Source: an uncultured Bacilli bacterium (GTDB lineage Bacteria > Bacillota_I > Bacilli_A > RF39 > UBA660). From it: a stretch of 64,000 nt of DNA. Below, piece by piece: positions 3,614 through 46,385 of the stretch. Below the pieces are notes generated by a model. That model made no database searches, was not told the origin of the DNA, and saw only the letters and a program-made list of their open reading frames with translations. The stretch is taken from positions 2,051-66,050 of the forward strand of contig CAKOMQ010000004.1 in the NCBI GenBank assembly GCA_934096715.1, read 5' to 3'. Positions within the stretch are counted from its first letter, which is position 1. The number at the start of each line of letters is the position of its first letter. Position numbers and translations under genes: made by a program.

Positions 3614-3645
3614 AAAAAGGTTAAACAGAAATTTGTTTAACCTTT
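3614..3645. repeat. Direct repeat copy 2 (32 bp); also the functional terminator and last codons of rpe
   Basis: Identical to 2412-2443. The rpe stop codon (3637-3639) lies inside it. Confidence 0.85.
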
Positions 3646-4257
3646 TAATATGCTTATATTTTTATTATAGTTATCACTCATACATATATAAGAGCCACTT
3701 ACAACTATATCTACTTTTTTATTTCTTAAATATTCAATTGATTCTTCGTTTATACCACCATCTATACTTACTGTAATATCTAAATTACTTAGATAGTCTA
3801 ATTTATCTAAGACACTTGGAATAAATTCTTGTCCACCACGACCTGGTACAACGCTCATAATAAGTACAATATCTATATCATTTAAGTAATCATCTATAAT
3901 ATGGATATCTTCATCTGGATTAATAGCAAGTCCGACTAAGAAACCCATACTTTTTATAAGTTCAATAGTTTTCTTAACATTTTTGCTTGCACTGGGGTGA
4001 AATATAATATCATTTATGTTTAACATTCCTATTTTGCTTATATATTTATCAGGATTATTTACCATTAAGTGAACATCTAAGCTTTTCTTGGTAAAACTTA
4101 AATCCTTTATGACTTCACCTATTGTAAAGTTTTTACATTCAACATAATTTCCATCCATCAAATCAACATGAATATAGTCAGCTATACTTTCGTCAATAAG
4201 TTTTATTGTTTCACTTTTTTTATGTTTACTAGTTATATAACTTACTGATACTTTCAT
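3637..4257 (-). CDS. rpe: Ribulose-phosphate 3-epimerase
   Basis: 206 aa. HVDLMDG, HLMV, PGRGGQEF and SIDGGIN motifs; conserved position after rsgA. Confidence 0.85.
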   Translation of the reverse strand: MKVSVSYITSKHKKSETIKLIDESIADYIHVDLMDGNYVECKNFTIGEVIKDLSFTKKSLDVHLMVNNPDKYISKIGMLNINDIIFHPSASKNVKKTIELIKSMGFLVGLAINPDEDIHIIDDYLNDIDIVLIMSVVPGRGGQEFIPSVLDKLDYLSNLDITVSIDGGINEESIEYLRNKKVDIVVSGSYICMSDNYNKNISILKG

Positions 4258-5084
4258 CTTCTATTATCTCCTTTTATAAATCTTATGTAGTTATCATATC
4301 TACTTTTTAATATATCTTTATTACCTATTATAGAACATCCTTTTTCTTTTAAATGTTTACAATCTTTAAATTGACAATTAGAATTTCTAAATTCTTTAAA
4401 TGAATAAGCTATCTTATCTAGATCATCTTTATTAAAATCTATTTGAGAAAAACCTGGAGTATCCATAATATAAATATTATTTATATTAAAAAGTTCAACT
4501 ATTCTAGTAGTATGTTTACCCCTACCTAAACTTTCAGATATTTCATTAGTTTTTAAATTAAGATTCTTATCTAACTTATTTATAAAAGTTGATTTTCCAG
4601 CACCTGTTTGACCACTTACAGTAACAATTTTATTTCTAAGTAGTTTCTTAAGCTTATTAATCTTTTTATTAGTAAAGACATTATATCCAATAGACTTATA
4701 ATACTTCATAAGTTGTTTAAATTCTTTTAATTCACTTCTATTAACTAAATCTAATTTAGTAAAAAGTAAGATCGGTTCAATATTTTTAATTTCACTAATA
4801 GATATAAGTTTATCTAAAAGAGTACTATTAAAATCTGGTTTCTTAAGACTAGTAACTATTATATTATAATCTATATTAGCAACAGGTGGTCTATCTAAAT
4901 AGTTATCTCTTTCAAGAATTTCATTAATAATAAGTTCATCTTTATTAAATAGAACTCTGTCACCTACACACGGAGTAATCTTATCATATCTAAATTTACC
5001 ACGTAAAACACAGTTAAAAGTTTCATTTTCACTCTTAACTGTGTACATAGTACTATTAATTTTTACTATTATTCCCCTAGTCAT
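4254..5084 (-). CDS. rsgA: Ribosome small-subunit-dependent GTPase A
   Basis: 276 aa. Circularly permuted GTPase: SGQTGAGKSTFINKL, DTPGF and a C-terminal Zn knuckle C..C.H..E.GC. Confidence 0.9.
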   Translation of the reverse strand: MTRGIIVKINSTMYTVKSENETFNCVLRGKFRYDKITPCVGDRVLFNKDELIINEILERDNYLDRPPVANIDYNIIVTSLKKPDFNSTLLDKLISISEIKNIEPILLFTKLDLVNRSELKEFKQLMKYYKSIGYNVFTNKKINKLKKLLRNKIVTVSGQTGAGKSTFINKLDKNLNLKTNEISESLGRGKHTTRIVELFNINNIYIMDTPGFSQIDFNKDDLDKIAYSFKEFRNSNCQFKDCKHLKEKGCSIIGNKDILKSRYDNYIRFIKGDNRR

Positions 5085-6849
5085 CTAAATCCGTTTCTAT
5101 ATCTTCTGTGTCATTATCACTTTGATAAACAGTTATTGAGAATGTAGCATTTTCTTTTACCACACTTCCTGCTTTTCTACTTTGACTTATGATATCTCCG
5201 TTTTTATGATTACCTACAGAACTATACTTAATAGTTAACTTAAGCTTATATTGTTCAGCAAAGTTTTCAACGTCTGTAACACTTTTAGTACCATCAGTAA
5301 AGTCTGGATATAATTCACCTATTTGAGCGTAAGTTAAAGTGATTGTGTCACCTGAATGAATTTTTTCTCCTGGCTCAACTGATTGACCAATTATATCTCC
5401 ATCTTTGTATTCAGTTTTAGGATCACTTATTACTTCTGATTTTTCTTCAACACTTATTCCTTTACTATTAAGCATTCCTTTAACTTCTAGATAATTTTTG
5501 CCTTTGTAGTCTTCAACAGTTACAGTACCTTCTCCACTTGAAATATATAGTTTTACTGTAGATCCTTTCTTACGATTATTACCACTTCCAGGACTAGTTT
5601 TAACTACTTTACCTTCATCTATATTTTCACTAACAATATTTTCTTGTTCATCACTAACAACAAAACCTGCTTTTTGTAGTATTTTAGTTGCTTCACTTAT
5701 TGTTTTATTAGATACATCTGGTACTTCAATTGTACTTCCTTTTGTAAATAATGTTATACAGACAAATACCGCAGTTATAGCGACTACTAGTCCTGTAAAT
5801 ACTATTGCTAATTTTATTAATAAACTATTTTGTTTTTTCATATCTTCCTCTTTAATTTGCTTTATTTCGATAGTTTTATCTAAATCTTCATTCTTTTTCT
5901 TCTCTACTTTAGGAGATTTAGCTTCCTTTTTAACTTCAACTTTTTCTTTTTTTACTGGTTGAATAGCACGAGTTTCATCACTAATTTCATTATATTTTAG
6001 AGTAATCTTTGGTTCATTTATTCTTGATGGATCTAAGCAAGTAAGTAAATCTTCATGCATCTCTCTTGCATCAGCATATCTGTTTTTAGGATTCTTAGCT
6101 GTTGCTTTAATTATAATATTTTCAACACTTTGGGGTATTGAAGGATTCTCTTCTCTGACACCAGGGACATTTTCTTTTAAATGCTTTAATGCTATTTCAA
6201 CAGCGTTATCTCCTTTAAATGGAAGTTTTCCTGTTAATAATTCATAGAATAATATACCTATTGAATAGATATCACTTTGAAGTGTTGCTCCTTTTCCACT
6301 AGCTTGTTCTGGTGGTAAGTAATGAACACTACCCATAACTGAGTTAGTTTGAGTTAGTTGAGTAGAATTCATAGCCATGGCAATACCAAAGTCTGTTATT
6401 TTAACTAAACCATTTTCAAGGATCAAAATATTTTGGGGTTTAATATCACGATGTATTATATAAGAATCATGCGCAACACTTAAACCAGCTGTAATTTGAA
6501 GCACTATATCGACAGCTTCACTTACCGTAAGTTTTCCACGTTTTTTAATAAGACTCTTTAAGTGTTTGCCTTCAATATATTCCATTACAATATAGTATTC
6601 ACCATTATCTTCACCAACATCATATACTTCAACAATATTTGGATGAGATAAACTACTTGCTGCCAAGGCTTCACGTTGAAATCTTCTAACAAATTTTTCA
6701 TCATTAGCAAGATCTCCCCTTAATACTTTAACAGCAACATCTCGATCAAGAATGGTATCATAAGCTAAATAAACATTAGCCATTCCACCTTCACCAATAC
6801 TTTTTATTATTTGGTAACGATCGTTTATTTTTTGACCTTTCATTACCAT
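5077..6849 (-). CDS. prkC: Ser/Thr protein kinase with PASTA repeats
   Basis: 590 aa. Hanks kinase motifs (HRDIKPQNIL, DFGIA), a TM segment and three C-terminal PASTA-like repeats. Confidence 0.9.
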   Translation of the reverse strand: MVMKGQKINDRYQIIKSIGEGGMANVYLAYDTILDRDVAVKVLRGDLANDEKFVRRFQREALAASSLSHPNIVEVYDVGEDNGEYYIVMEYIEGKHLKSLIKKRGKLTVSEAVDIVLQITAGLSVAHDSYIIHRDIKPQNILILENGLVKITDFGIAMAMNSTQLTQTNSVMGSVHYLPPEQASGKGATLQSDIYSIGILFYELLTGKLPFKGDNAVEIALKHLKENVPGVREENPSIPQSVENIIIKATAKNPKNRYADAREMHEDLLTCLDPSRINEPKITLKYNEISDETRAIQPVKKEKVEVKKEAKSPKVEKKKNEDLDKTIEIKQIKEEDMKKQNSLLIKLAIVFTGLVVAITAVFVCITLFTKGSTIEVPDVSNKTISEATKILQKAGFVVSDEQENIVSENIDEGKVVKTSPGSGNNRKKGSTVKLYISSGEGTVTVEDYKGKNYLEVKGMLNSKGISVEEKSEVISDPKTEYKDGDIIGQSVEPGEKIHSGDTITLTYAQIGELYPDFTDGTKSVTDVENFAEQYKLKLTIKYSSVGNHKNGDIISQSRKAGSVVKENATFSITVYQSDNDTEDIETDLDD

Positions 6850-11748: not shown

Positions 11749-13296
11749 CTATTGGATCATGAACGGATCGTCCAAAGAGCCTTCACCGCTTAAAAATGCT
11801 TGATTCGACGTAAGATAGAAGACTGGGCGCACCGCACCAGAAACATTCACGTAGTAGTTGGACACGTAACCATTGTCATTGACACCCCACGCATAGCGGT
11901 AGCCACTACCATTAACTCCAGTACGAGAAAGTGTCCATTCCCATGAATCCTTTGCAGTATCATTATTACTTGGATGCATCCAGCCTGTTTTTAGTGTATC
12001 TTTGTTATCAACAGTACTTCCTGTTATTGCTAAAGCACTTGAACCTAATGATAATGTATAATCACTTACATACATTAAGCCTATTTTTGCACTTGGTGTT
12101 GTCCATTCGCCAACTGTACTTGTTTTCGTACTTCTATTCATTTCATGTAAATATATTTGGCCTGGTGTTAAACTGATGTAATAATTTGGTCCATTACTTC
12201 CATCGGATGTTTTTGTATTTACTGCACTCCATGTCCAATTTTCTATACGATTACTCCATTCTGTATTTTGCAAGTAATCATATTTTGCACTTGTTAAGAA
12301 ATAACTTCCGTTAAGTCTTTTATACATATCACTGTTTTCCCATGATATATCTGTATTATAGTCCGGATGCCATGCATAGTAACCTATTTCATTACCTAAT
12401 TGTTTATATTTAATTAGTTTAACATGGCTATCTCCATTTGCATCTGAGAATACTCCAAGCACTCTATACATATATTTATCTTGATTTGCTGTACAAGTAG
12501 ATTTATCTGTTGTACCAAAACATATAAAGTTATTTGGATTTGTACTAGTTCCTACTGCCCCACTTCCTGTATATCTATAGCCATCGCCTTCTAGTCCACT
12601 TTGCCATAATTTTCCACTTGCTATTAATTTATCTGCTAGTGGTGTTGAGTCAGCATGTAATTTACAAGAAAATGCTTTTTTATCTCCACTTGTATATGGT
12701 TCTATTTTTATTGTGTATGAATTACCTACTAATTTATCTTGAGTAGTTGCTGTATTTGTTATACTACTTGTTAGTGGTATTGATACACTATTTCCTTTTG
12801 TTAAGTTTTTAATTTCTCCACTTACTATAATGCCTGTAGTTCCAGCAGTTGTAAGTTCCTTAAGAGTCATAGTCTTATCTCCTACTACTACTTTTACATC
12901 ATTATCTGAGTTATCAGTGATTGGAGTTGTTACAGTTGCTGTTACTTTATAATTATAAGTACAGTCTAGTGCTTCATCTCCTTCTGGTAAACTTGCTGTT
13001 GCTAATATGTAATTTGGATTAGTAGTTAGTGCTAGTCCATTTTCATTTTCATTAGCATAATAAGTCTTTCCTGCATTTGCTTGACTCATTAAGTTTGCAT
13101 CTAAATTTAAATATAACTTAGATGTTTTAATTTGCATTGTTGGATTTCCTAAGTTGTTGGCTTTACCTGTTACCTTAGCACCTGTTTGATCATTACTTGC
13201 ATTAATACTAAAGTACGCATATGTTCCACCTATTAATAGTAATAGAGCAAAAGTGAATGCTACAACTATAAGTTGCTTTTTGTTCATATTTTTCAT
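11749..13296 (-). CDS. Secreted surface protein, paralog A: SipW-type signal peptide, TasA/camelysin-like region and DUF1566/C-type-lectin-like C-terminal module
   Basis: 515 aa. N-terminus KKQLIVVAFTFALLLLIGGTYAYFS matches the SipW-cognate signal class (GGT.A.F). C-terminal ...EWTLSR...YAWGVNDNGYV...GAVRPVFYL resembles the W..S...AW.V...G.....VR.V ending of DUF1566/DUF6273-type lectin-like domains. Confidence 0.75.
   Translation of the reverse strand: MKNMNKKQLIVVAFTFALLLLIGGTYAYFSINASNDQTGAKVTGKANNLGNPTMQIKTSKLYLNLDANLMSQANAGKTYYANENENGLALTTNPNYILATASLPEGDEALDCTYNYKVTATVTTPITDNSDNDVKVVVGDKTMTLKELTTAGTTGIIVSGEIKNLTKGNSVSIPLTSSITNTATTQDKLVGNSYTIKIEPYTSGDKKAFSCKLHADSTPLADKLIASGKLWQSGLEGDGYRYTGSGAVGTSTNPNNFICFGTTDKSTCTANQDKYMYRVLGVFSDANGDSHVKLIKYKQLGNEIGYYAWHPDYNTDISWENSDMYKRLNGSYFLTSAKYDYLQNTEWSNRIENWTWSAVNTKTSDGSNGPNYYISLTPGQIYLHEMNRSTKTSTVGEWTTPSAKIGLMYVSDYTLSLGSSALAITGSTVDNKDTLKTGWMHPSNNDTAKDSWEWTLSRTGVNGSGYRYAWGVNDNGYVSNYYVNVSGAVRPVFYLTSNQAFLSGEGSLDDPFMIQ
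11821..11930 (-). other. GC-rich, adenine-poor NNY-codon patch in paralog A (DGR variable-region-like)
   Basis: Hand count gives 59 G+C in 11801-11920 (120 nt), against a very AT-rich surrounding. Of the 31 codons between LSR and RPVFYL, only one ends in A. Genome-atypical codons cgc, gcg, ggc, gtc, tac and aac are used. Confidence 0.4.
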
Positions 13297-13444
13297 TATT
13301 TACCTACTCTTTCTAGATTAATTTTATAATATTTTTAAACTGTTTTCAAGTTAAACATTGGTGAAATATGTAATTTAGGATTTTATCCCATAAATACGGC
13401 AAATTTTAGATGTTTATCACAAAATTCCGACCATTTTCAAGTAA

Positions 13445-13492
13445 TTTTACACATTTTTCCGACTATTTTTAACTATTTTTACACATTTTTCC
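13445..13492. promoter_or_regulatory. Two copies of ttttacacatttttcc, 32 bp apart, upstream of paralog A
   Basis: Exact 16-mers at 13445-13460 and 13477-13492, with actattttt also duplicated between them. They lie ~150-195 bp upstream of the start codon at 13296. Confidence 0.25.
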
Positions 13493-13522
13493 AGAAATGT
13501 TATTAAAAAAAGAAATATATTT

Positions 13523-14047
13523 CTATACTTCTTTGTTCTTTAATAAATATAATGATATTGGTTCCATTAATTCTAATATACCATGGATATAGAAGAAGAA
13601 ACCTACTACTAGCATTTGTTCATTTGGTTCATTTAAGTTAATTGCACATATTATACCAGTAGATATAAATAATATCATTGTTATAAATTTAATTAACCAC
13701 TCTTTACTTTTTCTATCATGATAGTAATCACTTTTTTTAAGTTTAATAAGACTCATTACTATTACCCATAACATGATTAATAATGCTAAGTGAAATGGTT
13801 TTTCTAAATCTAGTATGTAGACTAATACAAGTCCTAGAATACAAGCAATAAATGTAAATAATCCGTCGTAGTCTTTAGTCTTATATACTAAGATAAATTT
13901 ATATAAACTAATAAATCCAAATATACTAAACATAAGTATAAATACTAGTTCAATATCATTATTATCAAATAATGGTAACGCTAAAACTATTATTCCGAAT
14001 AATACAAGGACAATTGAGTTTATAAGTTCGATAGTTCTTTTTTTCAT
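13523..14047 (-). CDS. Multi-pass membrane protein (possibly HdeD/DUF308-like)
   Basis: 174 aa, ~6 hydrophobic segments, no catalytic motif. Confidence 0.35.
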   Translation of the reverse strand: MKKRTIELINSIVLVLFGIIVLALPLFDNNDIELVFILMFSIFGFISLYKFILVYKTKDYDGLFTFIACILGLVLVYILDLEKPFHLALLIMLWVIVMSLIKLKKSDYYHDRKSKEWLIKFITMILFISTGIICAINLNEPNEQMLVVGFFFYIHGILELMEPISLYLLKNKEV

Positions 14048-14085
14048 ATATCTTCACTTCCTACTTAAATTATATTTTATTTTAA

Positions 14086-14781
14086 TTATTTTTTCAAGTT
14101 ATTAATAGCACCATAACGACGGTCTTTATTATTAAAATAATCTATTGCATCATCTAATTCTTTACTATTAAAATCTGGAAAATAAGTATTACTAAAATAT
14201 AATTCAGCATAAGATGCTTGGTATAACATAAAGTTGGATAGTCTAACTTCTCCACCTGTCCTTATAAGTAAGTCTATTGGTGGTAAATTATTATATAAAT
14301 ATTTATAGAAATTCTCTCTAGTTAGATTTTCTTTATTAGATATACTTGCATATTTTAAACATGCATCTACTATTTCTTCTTGTCCACCATAATTTAGACA
14401 TATATTAAATATTCCATTTTTATTATCTTTAGTTTTAACTGTAATATTATTAATAGCGTCTAAAACGTCACTTCTTAAGTTTTCTTTTCTACCACTTATA
14501 ACTACTTTAATACCTTTTTTTATTATTTTATTTAATTTCTTATTAAAGTAGTTAACAAGTAGATTCATTAAATTATCTACTTCTTCTTGATCTCTTTTAA
14601 AGTTATCAGTACTAAAAGCATAAACACTTAATACTTTTATCCCTTTATCAAAAGCGTATAAAGATATATCTTCTAAAGTTTTAGCTCCTGCTTTATGTCC
14701 TTCACTTCTTTTTTTATTTCTTTCTGTTGCCCATCTACCATTACCATCCATGATAATAGCAACATGATTAGGTATATTCAT
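14086..14781 (-). CDS. uppS: Isoprenyl transferase (undecaprenyl-diphosphate synthase)
   Basis: 231 aa. HVAIIMDGNGRWA and RTGGEVRLSNF motifs. Confidence 0.9.
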   Translation of the reverse strand: MNIPNHVAIIMDGNGRWATERNKKRSEGHKAGAKTLEDISLYAFDKGIKVLSVYAFSTDNFKRDQEEVDNLMNLLVNYFNKKLNKIIKKGIKVVISGRKENLRSDVLDAINNITVKTKDNKNGIFNICLNYGGQEEIVDACLKYASISNKENLTRENFYKYLYNNLPPIDLLIRTGGEVRLSNFMLYQASYAELYFSNTYFPDFNSKELDDAIDYFNNKDRRYGAINNLKK

Positions 14782-14841
14782 ATATTCATTCCTTCCAAGT
14801 AATAAGTATACATTAAATTATATGGTTAGTGCAACTAAATA

Positions 14842-16377
14842 TTATGGAGTAATCATATATGGATCAGTAAGTGTACCTGTACCAGTTTTTCTTGTTACTT
14901 TACTGTCTAAATAGAATACTGGTCTTATTCCGTAGTCTGTTGTAACATTTGTATTAGTGATATAACCATTTGGATTAATAGTCCAGCTATAATTTGTTGT
15001 TGCACTAGATGTTCCTAAACCATAAGATGCTGTAGTATGTTCTGTATTATAGTTACCTGTAGTGTTTCCATATTTATTATTACCTAGGAATAACCAACTA
15101 GTTTTTAATGTACTTTGATTAGAATAAGTCCCAGTAGTCATACTCTTAGCTGTATCTCCTAGTGATAATACGTAATCACTAACATTCATAGCAACTATTT
15201 TTAATGTGTTATCATGCCATTGTCCAGTTGTTGTTGTTTTTCCAGTTCTATTCATTTCATGTAAATATATTTGACTTGGAGATAAACTATTATAGTAATT
15301 AGGACCACCTTCAAGCGTTAAAGTAACTACATCTCTTTTGCCTTCTTCACTTATGGCTGCTAACCACGCACTAGATTCTCCGAGATAATCGTATGTTTGA
15401 TTACCAATAAATAAATTTGGCATAGATGTTGCACTAGGAGAATTCCCATTTAGTCTATTAGATAATACATTTGGACCGAAAGATAGAATTCCTTGACCAA
15501 ATCTAGTACCTGCTGTAAATGCAGCGTTTGATGATAAACTAGTTAGTTTTATAAGTTTAGTATAGTTATCAAATACGCCAATAATTCGATACATATATTT
15601 ATCAGGATTACTTTTACATGTTTCTTGATCTATTGTACCAAAACAGACAAAGTTAGATGGAGTTGTACTTGTATTGTAGGCTCCTGTTCCAACAAAACGA
15701 TAGCCATCACCTTCTAGTCCACTTTGCCACATATTACCATTCTTGATTAAATAATCTGATAAAGGAATTTCTTTTTCGGTATCTTCTTCAGGTATATCTG
15801 GATCAATATACTTACCAGTATTAAGATTATTTTTACCATAGTAATTTATAATAAAATCATTATAAGTATAGTTATTATCTTTACTTTCTTTCTCTTTTTC
15901 ATAAACAGGAATAACTATTTTTAAATACGTATTACCTTTATTATTATTATCTCCTAGTTTAATAGATATATTTTCTACATCTACTTCTAAGTCTTCGCTT
16001 AATCCCCAGATAGCGTTCTTTCCATAAGCATCATTATAAACTATTTCATATAAATCATTTTCTTCTTTATTAACAAGAATAATAGATTTACCTACTAAAG
16101 TATTTATCGTAATCATTGTTTTATCATCACTTAATATAACTGGTATTGGTTCTTCATCGTTGTAAGCTAGACCAAAGTGAATTAAATTCTCTTGTACATT
16201 ATCAACAAGAAGGTCTCTCATAACATTGTCATCATAGTTTTTATCCATTTCATTAAAAGCTAAATTATTTACTAAGGTATGCAAAAAAATTAATATTACA
16301 GATAATAATACTATACTTACTATAAGTTCTATTAATGTCATCCCTTTATTATTTTTCATATAATTATATTCTATCAT
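14842..16377 (-). CDS. Modular type IV pilin-like protein, paralog B: prepilin N-terminus plus the same DUF1566/lectin-like module
   Basis: 511 aa. Class III signal KNNKG/MTLIELIVSIVLL with Glu at +5. The C-terminal ~300 aa align with paralogs A and C (MWQSGLEGDGYRF...FVCFG...DKYMYRIIGVF...GIRPVFYL). The real start may be the internal Met at 16359. Confidence 0.75.
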   Translation of the reverse strand: MIEYNYMKNNKGMTLIELIVSIVLLSVILIFLHTLVNNLAFNEMDKNYDDNVMRDLLVDNVQENLIHFGLAYNDEEPIPVILSDDKTMITINTLVGKSIILVNKEENDLYEIVYNDAYGKNAIWGLSEDLEVDVENISIKLGDNNNKGNTYLKIVIPVYEKEKESKDNNYTYNDFIINYYGKNNLNTGKYIDPDIPEEDTEKEIPLSDYLIKNGNMWQSGLEGDGYRFVGTGAYNTSTTPSNFVCFGTIDQETCKSNPDKYMYRIIGVFDNYTKLIKLTSLSSNAAFTAGTRFGQGILSFGPNVLSNRLNGNSPSATSMPNLFIGNQTYDYLGESSAWLAAISEEGKRDVVTLTLEGGPNYYNSLSPSQIYLHEMNRTGKTTTTGQWHDNTLKIVAMNVSDYVLSLGDTAKSMTTGTYSNQSTLKTSWLFLGNNKYGNTTGNYNTEHTTASYGLGTSSATTNYSWTINPNGYITNTNVTTDYGIRPVFYLDSKVTRKTGTGTLTDPYMITP

Positions 16378-16437: not shown

Positions 16438-16983
16438 ATGAAGAATAAAAATGGATTTGTATCAATGACAACTATTTTAACATTAGTATTAACTGTAAGT
16501 AGTCTTCTCTTACTTAATTTAACTGTGCTTATAGATGAAAAAGCGCTTACTAATAAAATAAAAGATAATTCTAGAAATAATATTAAGTCTTCTGATGAGC
16601 CTTATTGTTATTGGTCTGATGAAACTACATTAGTTATACCTTATGAAAGTAAAGATAAAAAAGCTAGTGGTACTGTTTCTTTAAATTGTTATCATCCTAA
16701 TACGATATCATTAAAGAATGACTTAACACTTGAAGGATTAGCTAATAAAGAATTATATAAGTCTTCTAGTGATTATTTATCAATAGATGAAATAAATCCT
16801 AGCGAGTTATCTGGTGGTTATGGATATAAAATTATATTCTCTATTAGTAGTACTAAATTAACTAGTGATGATAATTATTACACAATTACTTTAAACGAAG
16901 GTTTATTTTGTTATAACAATATTTGTAATGAAGAAGTTGTTAGTAACAAGATAAAAGTGGCGAAGGAGTATAATCATGAATAA
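16438..16983 (+). CDS. Minor pseudopilin-like protein (non-canonical N-terminus)
   Basis: 181 aa. KNKNGFVSMTTILTLVL has a Gly-Phe cleavage-like site followed by a hydrophobic helix but lacks Glu+5. Overlaps the next pilin gene by 8 nt. Confidence 0.4.
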   Translation: MKNKNGFVSMTTILTLVLTVSSLLLLNLTVLIDEKALTNKIKDNSRNNIKSSDEPYCYWSDETTLVIPYESKDKKASGTVSLNCYHPNTISLKNDLTLEGLANKELYKSSSDYLSIDEINPSELSGGYGYKIIFSISSTKLTSDDNYYTITLNEGLFCYNNICNEEVVSNKIKVAKEYNHE

Positions 16984-18589
16984 TAAGGGATTTACATTAA
17001 TCGAGTTAATTGCTGTTCTTGCAATAATGGGAATACTTTTTACTATAGGTATTGCGACTTTTAATTTTAAGGGTAATACAGAAGAAGATACTAAGAAAGC
17101 TAATATAAATACTGTTGAAAAAGCAATAAATGTTTATTATAAAATATTATCTCAAAAAGGAAAATTAAATTATTCTAAAGATAGCGAAGAAACAGCGTTT
17201 TGTGTATCTTATGAAAATCTTGTAAAGAATGGATATTTAGTGGAAAGTAAAATACCTACTGATGAAAATGGCAATAAATATAAGTATGCTACTGTTACTA
17301 TTAAGAATAATCAATTAGCATATGTTAATACAAATCTTACAGAATCTTGTAAAAAAGAAAAAACTAATATAACACCTATTAAAAATAAAAGTGGTAATCA
17401 AGGAGAAAATCAAGATGATACTGAAACAGTAAACTCTTATGAATTTAATAGTACTATAAATCAAACAAGTGAGAATACTTATAAAGTTGATTCTAAATTT
17501 AGAATGACTATTAGTCAAAATATTGATATAACTGAGTATAGACCTATTTATACATTTATTGTTCTTGATAGGTCTGGATCTATGGGTGGATCTCCTATAG
17601 CAAATGCAGTTGCATCCATTAAAAATCTTACTACTGATTTATATAATGAAAATATGAAAGATGCTCCCAATCCAGATAAACCAAATAATAAACCTATTTA
17701 TTGTACGAGCGTAGTTAAATTTGGTGATTCATCATATGTAGAAACTCCATTTACTCACAATATTATTTCTCCAGGAACTAGTGCTCCTGACGGAACAATT
17801 TATTATATGCCAATGCAATTAATAAATAATACTCTTTTATCAAATATGAGTGCTTATATAGCTGGTGACTCGGATGTTTGCAAAAATGCTTTAAATAATA
17901 ATCCGTTATACTTTATCTTATTTTTAAGTGATGGTGGTCCATTTGATGGATATGGTGAAAGTGGCGACGGTACAACTTTAAAATATAATACTGAGCAATT
18001 GAAGGCAAAAGGTGTTTATATTTTTACAATCAGTTATGGTTATGGAAATAATTCACATCTTAAATGTATGGCATCTAAAGTTCTTGGTGAAAACGAAACA
18101 TACACTGATGCAGATTATAAACTATGTAATACATATTCAGATGCATCTAAATTAATTGGATATAACGCAACTGGTACTGGTACAAAAGTATTCTATTTTG
18201 AATCTAGTCAACAACAATCTTCTCTCTCTGAAATATTTAAAACTTTTAGTACTGTAGCTAGAAAAGAATCTCAAAAAACTGAATATGATAAAATTAATAT
18301 AACATTTACTATTAATAATAAGTATTTTAAATTAGATAATAATAGCAAAGAATTTAAAAGTTCTATGAATATAGATTCTATGGAAACTAAATTTTTAACA
18401 AGTAAAAATGATTTTAATATAACATTAATTAATGATAACTTTGAAGGAACAGAAATAAAACTATTTAAAAGTATTAAACTTGAATTTATAGATTATGATG
18501 GTAAAGTGGATAATAAAACTGTTGAAGTACCAGAAAACCAACTACCTAAAGTTAATGTATATAAGTATAAAGACACCTTAATCAACTAG
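16976..18589 (+). CDS. Modular type IV pilin with von Willebrand factor A module
   Basis: 537 aa. Canonical NNKG/FTLIELIAVLAIMGIL prepilin motif, MIDAS-like VLDRSGSMGG (DxSxS) and LFLSDGGP. Confidence 0.8.
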   Translation: MNNKGFTLIELIAVLAIMGILFTIGIATFNFKGNTEEDTKKANINTVEKAINVYYKILSQKGKLNYSKDSEETAFCVSYENLVKNGYLVESKIPTDENGNKYKYATVTIKNNQLAYVNTNLTESCKKEKTNITPIKNKSGNQGENQDDTETVNSYEFNSTINQTSENTYKVDSKFRMTISQNIDITEYRPIYTFIVLDRSGSMGGSPIANAVASIKNLTTDLYNENMKDAPNPDKPNNKPIYCTSVVKFGDSSYVETPFTHNIISPGTSAPDGTIYYMPMQLINNTLLSNMSAYIAGDSDVCKNALNNNPLYFILFLSDGGPFDGYGESGDGTTLKYNTEQLKAKGVYIFTISYGYGNNSHLKCMASKVLGENETYTDADYKLCNTYSDASKLIGYNATGTGTKVFYFESSQQQSSLSEIFKTFSTVARKESQKTEYDKINITFTINNKYFKLDNNSKEFKSSMNIDSMETKFLTSKNDFNITLINDNFEGTEIKLFKSIKLEFIDYDGKVDNKTVEVPENQLPKVNVYKYKDTLIN

Positions 18590-18596
18590 GTGTCTT

Positions 18597-19163
18597 TTAT
18601 AATTCAAGATATACATATTCATAATGACACATATCAGCATTATTTTTACATATACTTTCTTGATCATCTACTAAAAATTCAAATAGAAGTATGGGCTTAT
18701 CGGATTCTATTTTATTTATGTATTTAATACCAGATAAATTTAAATATATATAATTACATTTAGAATTATTAAAATCTGTTAAACAATTTTCTTTATATTT
18801 AGATATATCACCTATTAAATAGATATTATTTATATCTAAGTTATTTTGATTAATTAGATAATCTTCTTTATAACTTATATCTACGTTACTGGAATTCACT
18901 CCTATATTAGTTATAAGTTTATTATCATTTACTAAGGTACTTAACTTATCAAAATTATCTATATAATCTTCCATTACCCTTTTCATATAAAAAGATTTAT
19001 ATAAACTACTTACATTATCTTCTCTTTTTTGTTCCTTAGCTTTATTATATAGTTTAAAATACATGTTAAAAAGTAATAGTAATGAAGTCATTAATATTAT
19101 TATAGCAATTATTGTTTCAATAAATATAAATCCATTTTTTTCTCTACTCTTTATCATAATCAA
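18597..19163 (-). CDS. Type IV prepilin-like protein
   Basis: 188 aa. REKNG/FIFIETIIAIIIL with Glu at +5. Confidence 0.55.
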   Translation of the reverse strand: MIMIKSREKNGFIFIETIIAIIILMTSLLLLFNMYFKLYNKAKEQKREDNVSSLYKSFYMKRVMEDYIDNFDKLSTLVNDNKLITNIGVNSSNVDISYKEDYLINQNNLDINNIYLIGDISKYKENCLTDFNNSKCNYIYLNLSGIKYINKIESDKPILLFEFLVDDQESICKNNADMCHYEYVYLEL

Positions 19164-19204: not shown

Positions 19205-21037
19205 TTAATTACTAGAATTAATATAGATAGTCATTTTAGATACATTGACAACATCTATACCTTCTTTAACGCTTTGATGAGCAACTTTGTTTACTTCAAC
19301 ACTAGAATTATATTTATCACTTGACGAGTTAACATATTCTTTAATAAGTTCTATTTTATTTAGTCTACAGAAACTTTCTACTTCGCTTACACTCTTACCA
19401 GTAAAATCTTTCATTAAAACATTATTATCACTAGTTTTTATATTTTTACCTGCTACACTTTTAACATATTCTGTATTAGCGTCATAGTAGAATGTTTTAA
19501 TTAATTCAGGTTCTTCTAATTCTAGGTTGATCTTCATAGTTTTTACAATATCATCTAAAGATTTTTGATATAAACCTAAAGTTGATAAGTACATACCATT
19601 TGGTAAGTATACCGGATTATCATATACTTCTAGGTAAGTTCTATTTAAAGTAAGCATTTCTGACCCATTTAATGTATTTGAAATCATACCCTTTAAGATA
19701 TTATAACTTGATAATATTTGATTAGTATCCATATTAACACTAATATTTTTACTTACAGCACTTAATATATCTTTGAAATCAGATAAACTATTTAGAGTTA
19801 CTAATTTACGAGCCATTGCTTCAACTAACTTTTGCTGATTTTGAATACGCATTAGATCTCCAGTTGGAAGTGAATGTCTATGACGAGCAAACGCTAGAGC
19901 TTGTTCACCATTTACATGTTGATTACCTACTTCAAGACATAATTGATTTTCAAAATTACGATGACTATCTTGTTCACAAAAAGCATTTTCAACATTTATG
20001 TCTACTCCACCTAAAGCATCCACCAAATCTACTACTCCCCTAAAATTTATCTTAGCATAATAATCTATTTTTAAAGTAGTTAGATTTTCAATGGTATTAA
20101 TAACACACTCTGTTCCACCAGCAGCAGATGAATTAATCTTGTTTATAGCATTTCCCCTACAAGAAATCGGAACATATAAATCTCTTGGAATACTAAATAC
20201 AGTAGCATTTAATGTATTTGGGTTAAATGATACAAGCATTAATGTATCTCCGTTAAATGAAGAATTAGCTTCTACCCCACTTTGACTATCGGTATCTACT
20301 CCCATTAAAAGAATCGTAAATGGTTCATTTAATTTCTTTTTACTATTCTTTAAACTAAGATCTTTATTATTCATAAGTTTACTGTATTTATAAACAACTT
20401 TAGTATTATTTGCTATATCTGGATAAGTACTTTCAAATAAACTTATATAGTTACTACTTACAAATATACCATCTACTTCTTTAGAATATAATTTATCAAT
20501 TAAACCGTCTGTTGTATAGGAATCATACTTAATAACTTCTTGTTTTAATTTATTCTTCTTAATAATATTTTTAGCTAATATATAACCTTCAATATCATTT
20601 TCATCACTAATCATGCCTAACTTACTTGTACTTTTTAAATTAGTATCATTTAAAGTAATCAAATAGCTTGTATAGACTATCTTTTTCTTTTCAGATAAAT
20701 TACTTATATTACCATAGATTACATTAATAAAATAAGAACATACAAACAAGAGAATAGCTATTAAGAATGTTATAATTGTTATAATTATAAACTTAACTTT
20801 CTTTCTTTTTACAACATAGGTATAGTTTCTATTTATTAAAAATAATAATAAAAGTATTAATATAACAATAACTATATATCTAATAGTAGTTTCTATACCA
20901 GATAGTTTTATTATAGATATATCTGCTAATACTAAGGATACTATAAAAGTTATTATACTTATAAGATAGATTGTAAGCATTACTTTATTAGAATTTTTTA
21001 ATTTCTTAATTATTCTTTTCATATTATGCTCCTTCAT
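19205..21037 (-). CDS. LCP (LytR-CpsA-Psr) family cell-wall glycopolymer ligase
   Basis: 610 aa. N-terminal TM segments, then the LCP core FTILLMGVDT...GDTLMLVSFNP...SIPRDLYV. Confidence 0.8.
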   Translation of the reverse strand: MKEHNMKRIIKKLKNSNKVMLTIYLISIITFIVSLVLADISIIKLSGIETTIRYIVIVILILLLLFLINRNYTYVVKRKKVKFIIITIITFLIAILLFVCSYFINVIYGNISNLSEKKKIVYTSYLITLNDTNLKSTSKLGMISDENDIEGYILAKNIIKKNKLKQEVIKYDSYTTDGLIDKLYSKEVDGIFVSSNYISLFESTYPDIANNTKVVYKYSKLMNNKDLSLKNSKKKLNEPFTILLMGVDTDSQSGVEANSSFNGDTLMLVSFNPNTLNATVFSIPRDLYVPISCRGNAINKINSSAAGGTECVINTIENLTTLKIDYYAKINFRGVVDLVDALGGVDINVENAFCEQDSHRNFENQLCLEVGNQHVNGEQALAFARHRHSLPTGDLMRIQNQQKLVEAMARKLVTLNSLSDFKDILSAVSKNISVNMDTNQILSSYNILKGMISNTLNGSEMLTLNRTYLEVYDNPVYLPNGMYLSTLGLYQKSLDDIVKTMKINLELEEPELIKTFYYDANTEYVKSVAGKNIKTSDNNVLMKDFTGKSVSEVESFCRLNKIELIKEYVNSSSDKYNSSVEVNKVAHQSVKEGIDVVNVSKMTIYINSSN

Positions 21038-21644
21038 ATCCTACTATAAATAGTTTATTATCTTTATTTATAACATCTATAATAGCGTTTTTATCATAGC
21101 CATAATCTTTCTTATAAGTCCAAGAAAGAGTTACTTTATATCCATTATAAGTAGTATCTTTATAGGTATAAGTTGATTCTTCTATATTAGTAGTTTTAAT
21201 TGACTCTACTATAGGTAATTCTTGTTCTCTAAAACCATCTGAGTTATCCAACATATATTTATATAAAGTATCAGTTATATTATTAGAAAAGTTTTCTTTA
21301 TTATCCTCTAGAATATATTCTAAAGATGGAGTGTCATATTTATTTATTTTATTATCTATAGTAAATATATCTATTACATATAGTTCTGATAATAGTTTAG
21401 CATATTCTTTATAATCAATATTATCACTTTTAAGAGTAGATTTTAATTTCTTAAAAGTATCTTTCATTAATTTAGTATCTCGATCATCTAAAGTATAACC
21501 ATATTCTTTAATACTGTCTTCTTGCTTATAAGCGTTTTTATCAGTGTCATTGTCATATAATTTATAACCTATAAATAAACTTAAAAAAGCTAGTATCAGT
21601 ACTAAAATAATTATTAGTAAAATCTTAGTCTTTTTCTTCATCAA
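21024..21644 (-). CDS. Membrane-anchored hypothetical protein
   Basis: 206 aa with a single N-terminal TM segment. Operonic with the LtaS and LCP genes (overlapping ends). Confidence 0.4.
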   Translation of the reverse strand: MMKKKTKILLIIILVLILAFLSLFIGYKLYDNDTDKNAYKQEDSIKEYGYTLDDRDTKLMKDTFKKLKSTLKSDNIDYKEYAKLLSELYVIDIFTIDNKINKYDTPSLEYILEDNKENFSNNITDTLYKYMLDNSDGFREQELPIVESIKTTNIEESTYTYKDTTYNGYKVTLSWTYKKDYGYDKNAIIDVINKDNKLFIVGYEGA

Positions 21645-23942: not shown

Positions 23943-25002
23943 TATTTATAAGGTATAAACTGAAAATCAAAGTATGTATAATATCCACCTTTTGGACAAT
24001 TTAAATATTCTGTAATTTGATTGGCTGCTGTATCAGATATTTTATTTATTCTAACAGCAGTATCGTCGGTTTGAACTAATGGTACAACATATCTTGTCTT
24101 TGCTTTTATATTAACACAATATTTTTCATCAGCAGGCATTGTACTTTTATAAACTGTATCTGCATCTTGAAATAATTTAAAACAATCTGATAATTATCTT
24201 CACAAGTTAAAATTTTATCAATTACTTCTTGTTCTGAAAGTGTATATAAATCTTCTACTGTTAAATAACCAACATTATTCATTGACTTACACATATCTGC
24301 TAAAAATTGCATTACTGTTCTATCTTTATCGCTTACCCATTCAGGCCATAATTTTGAAATTGTATCTATATATTCTTCACAAACTTCTTTATCTTTGAAA
24401 GCAAGTTCTTGTATACCATCTTCATTTGCTGTTACTACAATGTTGTTATACATTTTTCTAATTTTATCTAATTCCCAAACTCTGAAAAAAGTTAATCCAC
24501 TTGCAAATGTATATTCAAATCTATCAGCAGATAATTTTGGTGTATCATTATCCGCTATAGGATAAATTTTATAGTCATCTACTTCTTCTAACTTTATACC
24601 ATCTCTTTTTAGTAAACTCATTATTTTTGAAGAATTTCTAATAATGTCAGATGTTTTTTCTTCAGTAGACTCTTGAATTTCTGAATCACCATTCATAAAA
24701 TCTATACAATGTTTAAATACAGGTGTAGCAATATCGTGGAATAGACCTGCTAATGTTTGTTTCTTGTCGTGTGTAAAGTGCCAAATAATTAAGGCAACAC
24801 CAACACTATGATCTAAATTAGAATACCAATATCTAACGTTAAAGCATTTAGAATAATCTGTACCACAACTCATACTTATTTTACTAATTCTTTCCATTTC
24901 AGGAGTATCAATATATTCTAATAACCATTCTGGAAACTCTGGTGATAAAATACTAAAATATTCTTTTACTTCATCATTTAAACTATCATAATATTTATTC
25001 AT
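23942..25002 (-). pseudogene. HD-domain phosphohydrolase-like gene, split by a 1-nt frameshift
   Basis: ORFs 24106-25011 (HD motif HSVGVALI...GLFHDIATP) and 23942-24139 overlap in different frames. Shifting frame near gattgttttaaattatttcaa (about 24160-24185) gives a continuous ...EDNY.DCFKLFQDADTVYKSTMPADEKY... The ATG at 25002 is preferred over the GTG at 25011. Confidence 0.55.
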
Positions 25003-25019
25003 TATAATCACTACCTTTC

Positions 25020-25682
25020 TTACTTACAACATACATCAAAAAAATCTTTTTCATACTTTGTTTTCTTTATCATTCCCTTTGTTATATCTAATTTATCTAA
25101 AAACTCGGATTTATATTTCATTATTTCTTTCCCATTTTCAATAGAAGTATATATTTTTTCATCTATATAGTATTGGTCATCATCGATTTCAATCAATTTT
25201 AATCTTTCCAACTTATTTAGACTCTTTATGACTTTATTTTCTGAAATATTAACATAAAAATCACTAGTTAATAAATAATCTAATATGGGTGTAGTACCTT
25301 TTTCCTTGTTTTTTTGTAGCACATAAAGTGGAATTACTATTTTACTATATATTTTTGTAAAAATTTTAAAATCATTTGAATCCATTTGTTTGATAACCTC
25401 TGAAAAACTTGGATGAACATTTTCCTTTTTTGCTATATCCATATCAGAAGCCATTAAATTTAAATATAATTGTTTTATATCTTCTTTGCCCCAATTGTAA
25501 CTAATAGCTTGTGCAGACTGAATAAATATACTTGGATCAGCATCAACTATGTTTTCTGCGTTTTTGATTTCTAGTTTTCTTTGTAATTCTTGTTCAAATT
25601 CTTTAACTATAGACTCTCTGTTAATACACCACATTTCAGCTTTTGCCAATACATTTTTTACAACTCTAGGAACTAATCTCAC
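25020..25682 (-). CDS. Abi-alpha (DUF4393)-like protein
   Basis: 220 aa. The central segment LYLNLMASDMD...VHPSFSEVIKQMDSNDFKIF resembles the Abi-alpha family core as I remember it. No search was possible. Confidence 0.35.
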   Translation of the reverse strand: MRLVPRVVKNVLAKAEMWCINRESIVKEFEQELQRKLEIKNAENIVDADPSIFIQSAQAISYNWGKEDIKQLYLNLMASDMDIAKKENVHPSFSEVIKQMDSNDFKIFTKIYSKIVIPLYVLQKNKEKGTTPILDYLLTSDFYVNISENKVIKSLNKLERLKLIEIDDDQYYIDEKIYTSIENGKEIMKYKSEFLDKLDITKGMIKKTKYEKDFFDVCCK

Positions 25683-25700
25683 TGATAAATTGTAATATAA

Positions 25701-26261: not shown

Positions 26262-26369
26262 TCTTATTTCTCCTTTCACTAACAATAATATATATGTTAG
26301 TCTGGGATTTCTACCAAATGTCTTTGGAAGTTTGTCAAAGACTTTTAACAATTATAATACAAGTAACTA

Positions 26370-44813: not shown

Positions 44814-46385
44814 CTATTCTAAAATAAATGGATTTTCTAGAGAGCCATCTCCATCAGCAGTAATTTTAACATCATTAGTTAGATAGAAGACTGGGCGCGA
44901 ACCATACGCACCGACCACAATGTCGCTGTTGAAATAGCCACTACTATCGACAAGCCACGCATGAAAGCGACCACCACCAGCCCCATGACGAGAAAGCGCC
45001 CATTCATAAGTGCTCTTTGTAGTATCATTATTACTTTGATGCATCCAGCCTGTCTTTAATAAAGTATAATTAGTGTCAGTACCTGTTGTTAATGCTAACG
45101 CACTTGACCCCAATGACAATGCATAATCACTTGCATACATTAAGCCTATCTTTCCTGTTGGTGTTGTCCATACACCACCATTACAATTTACTGCAGTTTG
45201 TCCATAGTTCTTACATAATGTTTCTGATGATGTTTTATGCATTTCATTTAAGTATATTCCTTTTGGAGAACTTCTATAATAACTAGTATTATTTGTTTGG
45301 TCTTCATATGTTTTTGTATTTACTGCACTCCATGTCCAATTTTCTATTTTATTTGACCATGTAGTATTTTGTAAATAATCATATGTTGTATTTGTTAAGA
45401 AATAACTTCCGTTAAGTCCTTTATACATATCACTGTTTTCCCATGATATATCATTGTAAAGATCTGAGTTCCATGCAGTTGATACCAATTGTTTATATTT
45501 AATTAGTTTAACATGATTTTCTCCGCTTGCATCTGAGAATACTCCTAATACTCTATACATATATTTATCTTGATTTGCTGTACATGTAGATTTATCTGTT
45601 GTACCAAAGCATATAAAGTTATTTGGATTTGTACTAGTTCCTACTGCACCACTACCTGTATATCTATAACCATCTCCTTCTAGTCCACTTTGCCATAATT
45701 TTCCACTTGCGATTAAATGATCTGCTAGTGGTGTTGAATCAGCATGTAGTTTGCAAGAAAATGCTTTTGTATCCCCGCTTGTATATGGTTCTATATTTAT
45801 TGTGTATGAATTACCCACTAGTTTATCTTGTGTATTTGCAGTATTTGTTACACTACTTGTTAGTGGTATTGATACACTTTGTACTTTTGTTAAGTTTTTG
45901 ATTTCTCCACTTACTATAATGCCTGTAGTTCCTGCAGTTGTAAGTTCCTTAAGAGTCATAGTCTTATCTCCAACTACTACTTTAACATCATTATCTGAGT
46001 TATCAGTGATTGGAGTTGTTACTGTTGCTGTTACTTTATAATTATAAGTACAATCTACTGCTTCATCTCCTTCTGGTAATTGAGCTGTTGCTAATGTATA
46101 ATTTGGATTAGTAGTTAATGCTAGTCCACTTTCGTTTTCATTAGCATAATAAGTCTTGCCTGCATTTGCTTGACTCATTAGATTTGCATCTAAATTTAGA
46201 TATAACTTAGATGTTTTAATTTGCATTGTTGGATTTCCCAAGCTGTTTGCTTTACCTGCTACCTTTGCTCCTGTCTTATCGTTGCTCGCATTTATACTAA
46301 AGTATGCATATGTTCCACCTACTAATAGTAATAGAGCAAAAGTGAATGCAACTACTATTAGTTGCTTTTTTTCTAGTTTTTTCAT
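44814..46385 (-). CDS. Secreted surface protein, paralog C: SipW-type signal, TasA-like region and DUF1566/lectin-like module
   Basis: 523 aa. By my manual count, the first ~296 aa differ from paralog A at about 20 positions with no indels. The distal part is mosaic. The C-terminus is ...EWALSR...HAWLVDSSGYF...GSRPVFYL. Confidence 0.75.
   Translation of the reverse strand: MKKLEKKQLIVVAFTFALLLLVGGTYAYFSINASNDKTGAKVAGKANSLGNPTMQIKTSKLYLNLDANLMSQANAGKTYYANENESGLALTTNPNYTLATAQLPEGDEAVDCTYNYKVTATVTTPITDNSDNDVKVVVGDKTMTLKELTTAGTTGIIVSGEIKNLTKVQSVSIPLTSSVTNTANTQDKLVGNSYTINIEPYTSGDTKAFSCKLHADSTPLADHLIASGKLWQSGLEGDGYRYTGSGAVGTSTNPNNFICFGTTDKSTCTANQDKYMYRVLGVFSDASGENHVKLIKYKQLVSTAWNSDLYNDISWENSDMYKGLNGSYFLTNTTYDYLQNTTWSNKIENWTWSAVNTKTYEDQTNNTSYYRSSPKGIYLNEMHKTSSETLCKNYGQTAVNCNGGVWTTPTGKIGLMYASDYALSLGSSALALTTGTDTNYTLLKTGWMHQSNNDTTKSTYEWALSRHGAGGGRFHAWLVDSSGYFNSDIVVGAYGSRPVFYLTNDVKITADGDGSLENPFILE
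44889..45000 (-). other. GC-rich, adenine-poor NNY-codon patch in paralog C (DGR variable-region-like)
   Basis: Hand count gives 66 G+C in 44881-45000 (120 nt). None of the 30 codons between LSR and RPVFYL ends in A, and 13 of these 90 nt are A. Ends in the same 18-mer gcgcccagtcttctatct as paralog A. Confidence 0.4.

Follow-up and report, generated by a model that had tools for sequence, protein, structure and literature searches.

We describe a lectin-like module that is shared by three proteins encoded in a window of 64,000 nucleotides (positions 2,051 to 66,050 of contig CAKOMQ010000004.1, assembly GCA_934096715.1) from an uncultured bacterium of the Bacilli. The window has a GC content of 26.3% and spans most of the 68,316-nt contig. 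In all three proteins, here called A, B and C, the C-terminal ~300 residues form the same enlarged C-type-lectin-like DUF6273 domain. In A and C this domain follows a SipW-type signal and a carrier domain that is modelled as a beta-sandwich; in B it follows a predicted type IV pilin moiety. Related sequences show that it has been replaced as a cassette on a conserved pilin backbone, and in A and C one stretch of it carries a compositional and codon signature of the type associated with diversity-generating retroelements (DGRs). Taken as a whole, we consider it probable that a movable lectin-like cassette is placed on pilin, SipW-type and membrane-anchored carriers and that one of its loops is diversified. 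The genes and modules concerned are as follows.

11749..13296, minus strand: gene A, an intact open reading frame (ORF) of 515 residues with SipW-type signal, beta-sandwich carrier and DUF6273-like module (AlphaFold2 model)
11752..12651, minus strand: module of A, residues 216-515, delimited by a hidden Markov model (HMM) of the module; homologous to the module of B
14842..16377, minus strand: gene B, an intact ORF of 511 residues, predicted modular minor type IV pilin with DUF6273-like module
14848..15774, minus strand: module of B, residues 202-510; DUF6273 at 24.6 bits against a cutoff of 23.5, Foldseek match to 9qa6
44814..46385, minus strand: gene C, an intact ORF of 523 residues, paralogue of A with the same architecture; module at 44817-45740

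The shared module is an enlarged C-type-lectin-like DUF6273 domain

Proteins A and B are 43% identical over 312 residues (E 3e-74), with the similarity limited to the C-terminal 60% of the two sequences (A 219-514, B 205-509); sequence comparison finds their N-terminal parts unrelated. A and C are 76% identical from end to end. When the module HMM is run against the six-frame translation, exactly three copies are found in the window, those of A, B and C. A common C-terminal module of ~300 residues had been proposed in an earlier, sequence-only reading of this DNA, and pairwise comparison and HMM alike place it far beyond chance. The motifs quoted in that reading are also present, namely LWQSGLEGDGYRY/F, IYLHEMNR and RPVFYL, together with GGTYAYFS in A and C and G↓MTLIE in B (the arrow marks the cleavage site here and below). 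None of the three proteins has a name in the databases. Homologous proteins occur in human gut metagenome assemblies, Hadza samples included, and a homologue search with B returned 424 proteins. A collection scan with the module returned 10 loci from three metagenome-assembled genomes (MAGs; 'uncultured Mycoplasma sp.' and 'Bacilli bacterium'), the window's own species not being among them.

The Pfam family DUF6273 (PF19789) matches residues 401-492 of B with 24.6 bits, above the gathering score of 23.5. The corresponding match in A is sub-threshold (12.5 bits) and C has none; both are clearly homologous to B. In the AlphaFold2 model of B the blocks of the module mostly reach a predicted local distance difference test (pLDDT) score of 80-96. 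A Foldseek search with this model gives a sole significant match in the PDB, 9qa6 (E 1.3e-5, probability 1.00, 329 columns, 13% identity), which is a structure of the Thomasclavelia ramosa immunoglobulin A (IgA) peptidase determined by cryogenic electron microscopy. The match presumably lies in the peptidase's N-terminal domain (residues 31-321), a DUF6273 domain with a C-type-lectin-like core, large decorations and twice the usual size, which IgA cleavage does not require and whose function is unknown (PMC12237041, PMC12402451). Because B passes the DUF6273 cutoff and its model matches 9qa6, the 'adhesin-like head' of the sequence-only reading can be identified as a lectin-like domain, and thus as a member of a known, functionally uncharacterised Pfam family. 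The earlier suggestion that it binds a ligand gains support from the same two results, which point to a lectin-like and probably ligand-binding domain.

The module and the T. ramosa peptidase's N-terminal domain have much in common: both are DUF6273 domains of ~290-300 residues with a C-type-lectin-like core and large decorations, and both come from low-GC gut Bacillota. They differ in sequence (13% identity) and in setting, since the T. ramosa domain stands N-terminal to a metallopeptidase in a sortase-anchored protein. As the function of that domain is unknown, it gives no clue to the ligand of the module described here.

The module has been exchanged as a cassette between its carriers

Searches with the module HMM find a single copy on four pilins, on ~60 SipW-type proteins and on membrane-anchored proteins of ~415 residues, and two tandem copies on membrane-anchored proteins of 700-860 residues. 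The sequence-only reading had proposed display of the head on two scaffolds; as a count this is too narrow, the membrane-anchored proteins with their one or two copies making more than two.

The modules borne by pilins are not monophyletic. The B module shares 71% identity with the second module of two membrane-anchored proteins, P0004 and P0005, and only 44-46% with the other pilin-borne modules, and the module of the pilin P0003 is 80% identical to module 2 of P0038, 75% to the module of the SipW-type protein P0069 and 71% to that of C. Between B and P0003 themselves (the latter encoded at 3003-4520 of locus L116) the pilin moieties are 96% identical as protein and the modules 46%. The DNA shows the change too: identity is 97-100% up to about nt 660, a point inside the conserved motif LWQSGLEGDGYR, then falls to 65% or less over most of the module, and returns to 80% over the last ~30 nt. 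Near-identical pilin backbones thus carry different modules, and therefore the module has been swapped as a cassette. The pair B/P0003 represents a cassette replacement on a conserved pilin backbone, in which the P0003 module is of the A/C type.

The locus of gene A also varies between related genomes, where the gene is present or absent at the same site. Here it lies between the gene for a 174-residue membrane protein and fmt. A related species (L029) lacks it there, and in other strains (L116, L112) an AAA_14/DUF4143 gene flanks gene A or replaces it.

Gene B belongs to a cluster of predicted type IV pilins

Gene B is adjoined by three further genes with prepilin-like N-termini.

16285..16359, minus strand: class III signal and start of helix alpha-1 of B, residues 7-31 (MKNNKG↓MTLIELIV..., Glu at +5)
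16438..16983, plus strand: pilin-like gene, 181 residues (MKNKNG↓FVSMT..., without Glu5), no family match; conserved beside B
16976..18589, plus strand: modular pilin with a von Willebrand factor A (vWA) domain, 537 residues; PF07963 29.2 bits and PF00092 (VWA) 28.7 bits, both above cutoff
18597..19163, minus strand: small pilin, 188 residues (...EKNG↓FIFIE...); weak ComGE/ComGF-type match (NF041013, E 2.3e-6), N_methyl 13.2 bits

The N-terminus of B, MKNNKG↓MTLIELIVSIVLLSVILIFL, consists of a leader ending in Gly and a hydrophobic stretch with Glu at +5. Two prepilin models recognise it above their cutoffs (PF07963 with 28.9 bits against 21.2, TIGR02532 with 21.4 bits against 16.3), so that the class III prepilin signal read from the sequence alone is upheld, and the three adjoining pilin genes accord with it. 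B is laid out as a pilin moiety (residues 13-160), a linker (163-200) and the module (202-510). Its model has a helix at residues 11-42, strands at 64-160 and a disordered linker of low confidence at 163-200. The four-gene cluster is flanked by an LCP-family gene and uppS and recurs in every contig seen; it is syntenic even in species whose pilin moiety is only 65% identical to that of B. Sequences at least 90% identical to B number 13, and the full-length ones among them are free of disruptions. An invertible segment carrying the two plus-strand pilin genes was also considered and was rejected, as only weak AT-rich inverted repeats are present.

Modular pilins form a described class, of which more than 1,200 with 264 architectures have been catalogued (PMC8179133, PMC9934059). 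By its sequence B is a new member of this class, a modular minor type IV pilin. The pilin reading of B was correct, and the kind of protein is a known one. The closest parallel is Streptococcus sanguinis, in which PilA (without Glu5), PilB (vWA) and PilC (lectin) form an adhesive complex at the pilus tip (PMC8179133, PMC9934059). Like PilB and PilC, B couples a bulky functional module to a short pilin moiety that has a class III signal and Glu5. In S. sanguinis as in the window, adjacent genes of a monoderm host encode a pilin with a vWA domain, a lectin-type pilin and one that lacks Glu5, and by this analogy the 181-residue protein may be the counterpart of the Glu5-less PilA, or K-type, subunit (PMC9934059). 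There are also differences. The lectin of PilC is concanavalin-A-like, whereas the module of B is an enlarged C-type-lectin-like DUF6273 domain, and the window cluster, known here from sequence alone, lies apart from pilus machinery and on both strands. The replacement of a module between near-identical pilin backbones likewise sets the lineage of the window apart from S. sanguinis.

A and C combine a SipW-type signal with an unannotated carrier domain

The N-terminal half of A comprises two features that recur in C.

13216..13296, minus strand: signal peptide of A, residues 1-27 (...LLLLIGGTYA↓YF); cleavage site inferred from the TasA alignment
12658..13140, minus strand: carrier domain of A, residues ~53-213, a beta-sandwich with conserved C112 and C211; pLDDT about 90

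The segment GGTYA↓YF of A and C aligns with the cleavage site of TasA, GGGTWA↓AF, and places an aromatic residue at P2', which SipW accepts and LepB handles poorly (PMC10269814). The SipW-signal model TIGR04088 scores below its cutoff of 19 bits in both proteins (9.7 bits in A, 16.7 bits in C); it matches 17 of 38 close relatives, with a best E-value of 2.1e-5. Together with the N-terminal residues shared with SipW-adjacent subunits (below), these matches support the proposal that A and C carry a SipW-type signal.

The mature part is another matter. In the AlphaFold2 model of A a helix (residues 6-23) and a disordered segment (24-52) precede the beta-sandwich of residues 53-213, which is modelled at pLDDT about 90. 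The sequence-only reading had taken this region to be TasA/camelysin-like, and here it is not supported: PF12389 is absent from A and C at E-values up to 1. Weak PF12389 matches do occur in 12 of 107 carrier relatives (best E 2.5e-4) and probably reflect the signal region. Profile searches of the PDB with the full A/C family and with the stand-alone carriers gave only chance-level matches, TasA not being among them. Two further results count against a TasA-like carrier. When 47 stand-alone carriers were compared with 28 TasA-family proteins by hhalign, only the 32-residue signal aligned, with a probability of 24%. In addition, the fold matches of the A model are all weaker than E 1e-3; the best are jelly rolls (TNF family, capsid proteins), and the TasA-like archaeal pilin 7ueg comes at rank 5 with a probability of 0.60. 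By sequence, then, the carrier is not detectably TasA; by fold it is a beta-sandwich whose resemblance to jelly rolls is weak.

A search of 1.84 billion representative proteins with a profile of the carrier (residues 1-215) gives 571 clusters with E-values of 1e-3 or lower; for 357 of these the E-value is 1e-10 or lower. Neither A and C nor the relatives scanned have a Pfam or NCBIfam model for this domain. Among the best 150 matches the carrier domain is N-terminal in nearly all, the GATYAYF motif is near-universal and the two cysteines are conserved. Within this set, 51 are stand-alone proteins of 195-265 residues that end just past the second cysteine, 34 carry the lectin-like module and 56 have other C-terminal regions. 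A Pfam scan of 107 relatives finds among these other regions DUF285, BspA-type leucine-rich repeats, Flg_new (Listeria-Bacteroides repeats), Laminin_G_3 (concanavalin-A-like), glycine-rich and immunoglobulin-like (Ig) domains.

Similar signals adjoin SipW-type peptidase genes in other organisms

A metagenome scan with the alignment of one carrier subfamily returned 79 loci, of which 42 have at least 6 kb of downstream sequence. In 10 of these 42 loci a gene for a SipW-type peptidase lies 1.4-6 kb from the matching gene; the example at 15422-16204 of L067 scores 94 bits with TIGR02228 (cutoff 51.85) and 79 bits with the Bacillus SipW model. The carrier family and the SipW-adjacent subunits have their first 45-56 residues in common, that is, the signal and an N-terminal extension (hhalign probability 98.5-98.9%). 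Since the same signal and extension stand before different mature domains, this segment is suggested to be a unit of export and assembly. Dependence of this signal type on SipW is thus supported by gene context in other organisms, and is a proposal for the genome of the window.

The SipW-containing loci themselves share a recurrent gene group (L044, L045, L048, L049, L057, L062, L067, L069, L071 and L110; for example 10001-16204 of L067). It opens with one or two small subunits bearing the shared signal and extension and has the SipW-type peptidase last; between them there is usually a membrane protein with up to ~40 DxDGDGxPD calcium-binding repeats and a cadherin-like domain. The arrangement resembles the tapA-sipW-tasA layout. 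That A-type carriers themselves belong to such operons was ruled out by an analysis of alignment coverage, in which only the first 45-56 residues were common, and homology of the SipW-adjacent subunit to TasA was rejected as well, since hhalign again aligns only the signal peptide.

Stand-alone carrier genes are often arranged in tandem, 39 of the 79 loci holding at least two. Examples encoding proteins of ~200-290 residues are found in L100 (2986-9181, eight in a row), L078, L076 and L018 (6851-8104, two). Such arrays fit what would be expected of major and minor subunits or of sets of variants. Large proteins whose calcium-binding repeats are of the DxDGDG or dockerin-like kind are also encoded in contigs related to the window's organism (L113 1-323, L017 1-1031, L024 1192-2133). 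The first of these, a large protein labelled 'Dockerin_1 (weak)', lies at a contig edge ~10 kb upstream of the window start in one strain, and another such protein is encoded immediately downstream of P0127, a stand-alone carrier gene; no peptidase gene appears before the ends of these contigs. A collagen-like GxT-repeat protein (4940-5548) adjoins the carrier genes of L018.

One loop of the module carries a retroelement-type signature

Variation within the module is concentrated in a single stretch, which was mapped in both A and C.

11833..11925, minus strand: hypervariable stretch of A, residues 458-488; GC-rich, NNY codons, second highest GC peak of the window
44898..44987, minus strand: hypervariable stretch of C, residues ~467-496; GC 0.54 against 0.30 in the rest of the gene, highest GC peak

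The most variable columns of the module correspond to residues 458-488 of A (entropy 2.3-3.2 bits). They lie between EWTLSR and RPVFYL, at the C-terminal end of the DUF6273 match. The corresponding ~120-nt stretch has a GC content of 0.48-0.62, against about 0.30 in the rest of the gene, in A, in C, in the L112 allele of A (19850-21379), in the MAG gene L008 and in the pilin P0003. Against a mean of 0.263 (standard deviation 0.055), the top two GC peaks of the 64 kb are those of C (44891-45013, 0.553) and A (0.512); the third is a tRNA-Gly gene.

The codons in this stretch are of two kinds. Invariant ones avoid adenine (CGC, GCG, GTG, GTC, TGG, GGT), and variable ones are NNC or NNT with both leading positions changing. 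Between A and its L112 allele, mismatches at codon positions 1 and 2 as against position 3 number 31:8 in the stretch and 68:72 elsewhere (Fisher p 5e-4). Lys, Glu, Gln, Met and Trp are residues that adenine mutagenesis of AAY codons cannot yield, and these five make up 2.1% of the variable columns of SipW-type modules, as against 19.2% of other variable columns. In B the corresponding stretch is rich in A and T (GC 0.32), and 10 strain variants show no variation in it. Its module thus appears to be fixed, and those of A, C and P0003 look diversified.

DGRs have DUF6273 among their documented targets, with a C-terminal variable region (PMC10743442, PMC11792537, bioRxiv 10.1101/2024.10.15.618418). 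The gut-phage tentaclins and the Faecalibacterium prophage targets resemble A and C in having a DUF6273 domain of C-type-lectin-like fold, a variable region at its C-terminal end and NNY-type codons. They differ in being phage proteins, whereas A, C, the pilins and the membrane-anchored proteins are cellular and have neither template repeat nor reverse transcriptase nearby; the module here also continues for ~25 residues past the variable stretch, unlike the phage variable proteins. The pattern suggests that the loop before RPVFYL is most likely diversified by a DGR located elsewhere in the genome. The template repeat of such an element would be expected to measure ~120 nt, to read TGG-AAY-GTC-AAY... 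and to end in CGCCCAGTCTTCTATCT.

Discussion

We propose that the ~300-residue module acts as a movable cassette that may be placed on several surface-display carriers of a lineage of uncultured gut Bacilli with 26% GC. SpoVA and CotJB are encoded in neighbouring loci and the hosts therefore appear to be spore formers. In B, the pilin moiety with its class III signal, Glu5 and helix alpha-1 would place the protein in a type IV filament, probably at the tip in company with its three neighbours (the vWA pilin, the one without Glu5 and the small one), where the lectin-like head would serve adhesion. A and C, with a SipW-type signal, an N-terminal extension of ~25 residues and the beta-sandwich carrier, would most likely be cleaved by a SipW-type peptidase encoded elsewhere in the genome. 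After cleavage they would be exposed on the outside of the cell, where the extension might link them into a fibre. In related strains membrane-anchored proteins bear the cassette, single or doubled. Cassettes would pass from carrier to carrier by recombination at the conserved 5' motif LWQSGLEGDGYR, and in those of the A/C type the loop before RPVFYL would undergo diversification, for which a DGR at another place in the genome is the most likely agent.

Several observations weigh against this proposal, and they lend weight to simpler accounts of its parts. A and C might be ordinary Sec-exported surface proteins, with the helix as an anchor or as a substrate of the general signal peptidase and the beta-sandwich as a stalk through the wall, so that neither SipW nor a fibre would be involved. 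The window holds neither SipW nor a prepilin peptidase, as the earlier reader had stated: a Pfam scan of every ORF of at least 90 residues finds no S26 or A24 peptidase, no T2SSE or T2SSF protein and no reverse transcriptase; a pilus ATPase, a platform protein and a major pilin are likewise absent. No SipW-type peptidase lies beside A/C-type genes in other contigs; A and C, like the genes related to them, stand singly amid housekeeping genes. In two other assemblies the sequence was followed for 10 kb upstream of the window, and it too has housekeeping genes and no gene for SipW, a prepilin peptidase, other pilus machinery or a reverse transcriptase. The SipW-adjacent subunits differ from the carriers of A and C in the mature domain, which in A and C is not TasA-like by sequence, the TIGR04088 scores of both proteins fall short, and the same head exists on membrane-anchored proteins. 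Even so we think this account unlikely. The GATYAYF motif follows directly on the helix and is kept in nearly all of the best 150 of 571 clusters, which suggests a recognition site rather than a plain anchor; it aligns with the TasA cleavage site and offers the P2' aromatic residue that suits SipW better than LepB (PMC10269814). The signal and extension recur in SipW-adjacent subunits at the high hhalign probability given above, and stand-alone carriers in tandem are hard to explain as stalks with nothing to carry. For B and its three neighbours the corresponding alternative is that they are pseudopilins of a competence (Com) or type II secretion-like system, or relics deprived of their machinery, in which case the head would not sit on a filament. 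The weak family matches of the cluster are indeed to ComGE, ComGF and GspG models, pilus assembly genes are missing from the 64 kb, and the four genes are divided equally between the two strands and hence do not form a single operon. The pilin moiety of B is moreover modelled at low confidence (pLDDT 55-65), and with that moiety so modelled Foldseek returns no pilin for B. We judge this alternative to be very improbable, since the ComG-type and GspG matches are all far below cutoff, bulky vWA and lectin-like modules fit the adhesive tip complex of S. sanguinis (PMC8179133, PMC9934059), and several species with a pilin moiety of 65% identity have the whole cluster in the same gene order, with B kept undisrupted in the full-length members of its 13 close sequences.

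The diversified loop is the part for which a simpler account deserves most attention. Ordinary diversifying selection, combined with gene conversion among paralogous cassettes, might produce a GC-rich hypervariable stretch in which no retroelement takes part; we regard this as a serious possibility that we nonetheless doubt. A scan tolerating mismatches only at template adenines finds no template repeat, whether in the window, in related loci totalling 1.2 Mb or among viral contigs, and ordinary repeat finding in the window finds none either. No ORF of the window has an RVT domain and the related loci examined have no reverse-transcriptase motif; the viral contigs do not encode the module, nor do they match a DNA pattern derived from the stretch's conserved 3' end. 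Paralogues are directly shown to recombine their cassettes, many binding loops have a high content of Tyr, Ser, Asn and Gly, and several third codon positions also differ between alleles. Selection alone would, however, leave unexplained why invariant codons in a 26% GC genome should avoid adenine and use G and C (CGC, GCG, GTG, GTC), why the stretches of A and C should be the two highest GC peaks of 64 kb, and why Lys, Glu, Gln, Met and Trp, which NNY codons cannot encode, should drop from 19% to 2%. DUF6273 is, moreover, an established retroelement target with its variable region at the same end of the domain (PMC10743442, PMC11792537). For the head as a whole it also counts against a role in adhesion that enlarged DUF6273 domains have no known ligand. 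A more far-reaching form of our proposal, in which a single retroelement elsewhere in the genome rewrites the loop and the cassette has been recombined onto the pilus tip, onto new modular SipW-dependent fibre subunits that assemble through the shared N-terminal extension, and onto membrane anchors, strikes us as speculative and rather unlikely to hold in full. If it were true, the SipW-type carriers would stand in the same relation to TasA-like fibres as modular pilins do to type IV pili, and with proteins such as P0003 a head diversified by a retroelement would be known on type IV pilins for the first time.

For A and C the nearest known systems are TasA/TapA/SipW of B. subtilis and the archaeal AbpA, in which the signal likewise ends in GGT-aromatic-A↓x-F (PMC9674648, PMC10151520, PMC9245690). 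TasA and AbpA also have an extension past the cleavage site followed by a beta-rich sandwich domain, and signals related to those of A and C adjoin SipW-type peptidase genes in other loci, as in the TasA system. Unlike TasA, A and C have a mature domain with no detectable sequence homology to it and no sipW or tapA nearby. They also carry a C-terminal head of 300 residues, for which the TasA-family sequences retrieved (mostly 230-375 residues) have no room. Fibre formation is a property of the TasA system and for A and C a possibility.

Relative to the literature found, what is new here is a large unannotated family of SipW-signal carriers with modular architectures, the transfer of a single lectin-like cassette between backbones of the pilin, carrier and membrane-anchor kinds, and a retroelement-type signature within that cassette, a type IV pilin included. 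The literature searched has no paper in which both 'diversity-generating retroelement' and 'type IV pilin' appear. The picture that emerges is of a gut bacterium that would use one binding domain as an interchangeable and probably self-diversifying warhead on unrelated surface-display systems. It would extend the idea of modular pilins to a second group of secreted proteins, the SipW-type carriers with their 571 clusters, and it points to DGR targets that are cellular rather than phage-borne and sit on pilus and fibre subunits. In uncultured low-GC gut Bacilli, whose interactions with host or partner organisms are unknown, proteins of the A, B and C types are obvious candidates for adhesion, and they are potential markers at the strain level.

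Other features of the window

Four further loci lie outside the systems described above. The region 24106-28922 (minus strand) looks like a small defence island, with genes for an HD-domain protein, Abi_alpha, a helix-turn-helix (HTH) regulator and an OLD-family AAA_15 and TOPRIM nuclease; a desulfoferrodoxin gene lies among them, and the content of the island varies between strains. A 1511-residue ORF at 31476-36011 (minus strand) has no Pfam match and contains three diverged 90-nt copies of a sequence (63-70% identical), spaced ~420 nt apart. At 48134-48646 (minus strand) a protein with a BclA C-terminal domain of the exosporium type is encoded. Between the genes for RNase J and rpe, at 2528-3436 (plus strand), lies the gene for a 302-residue HTH_38 protein, possibly a transposase; it is absent at the same site in GCA_977040245.1 (L112) and is thus likely to be an insertion.

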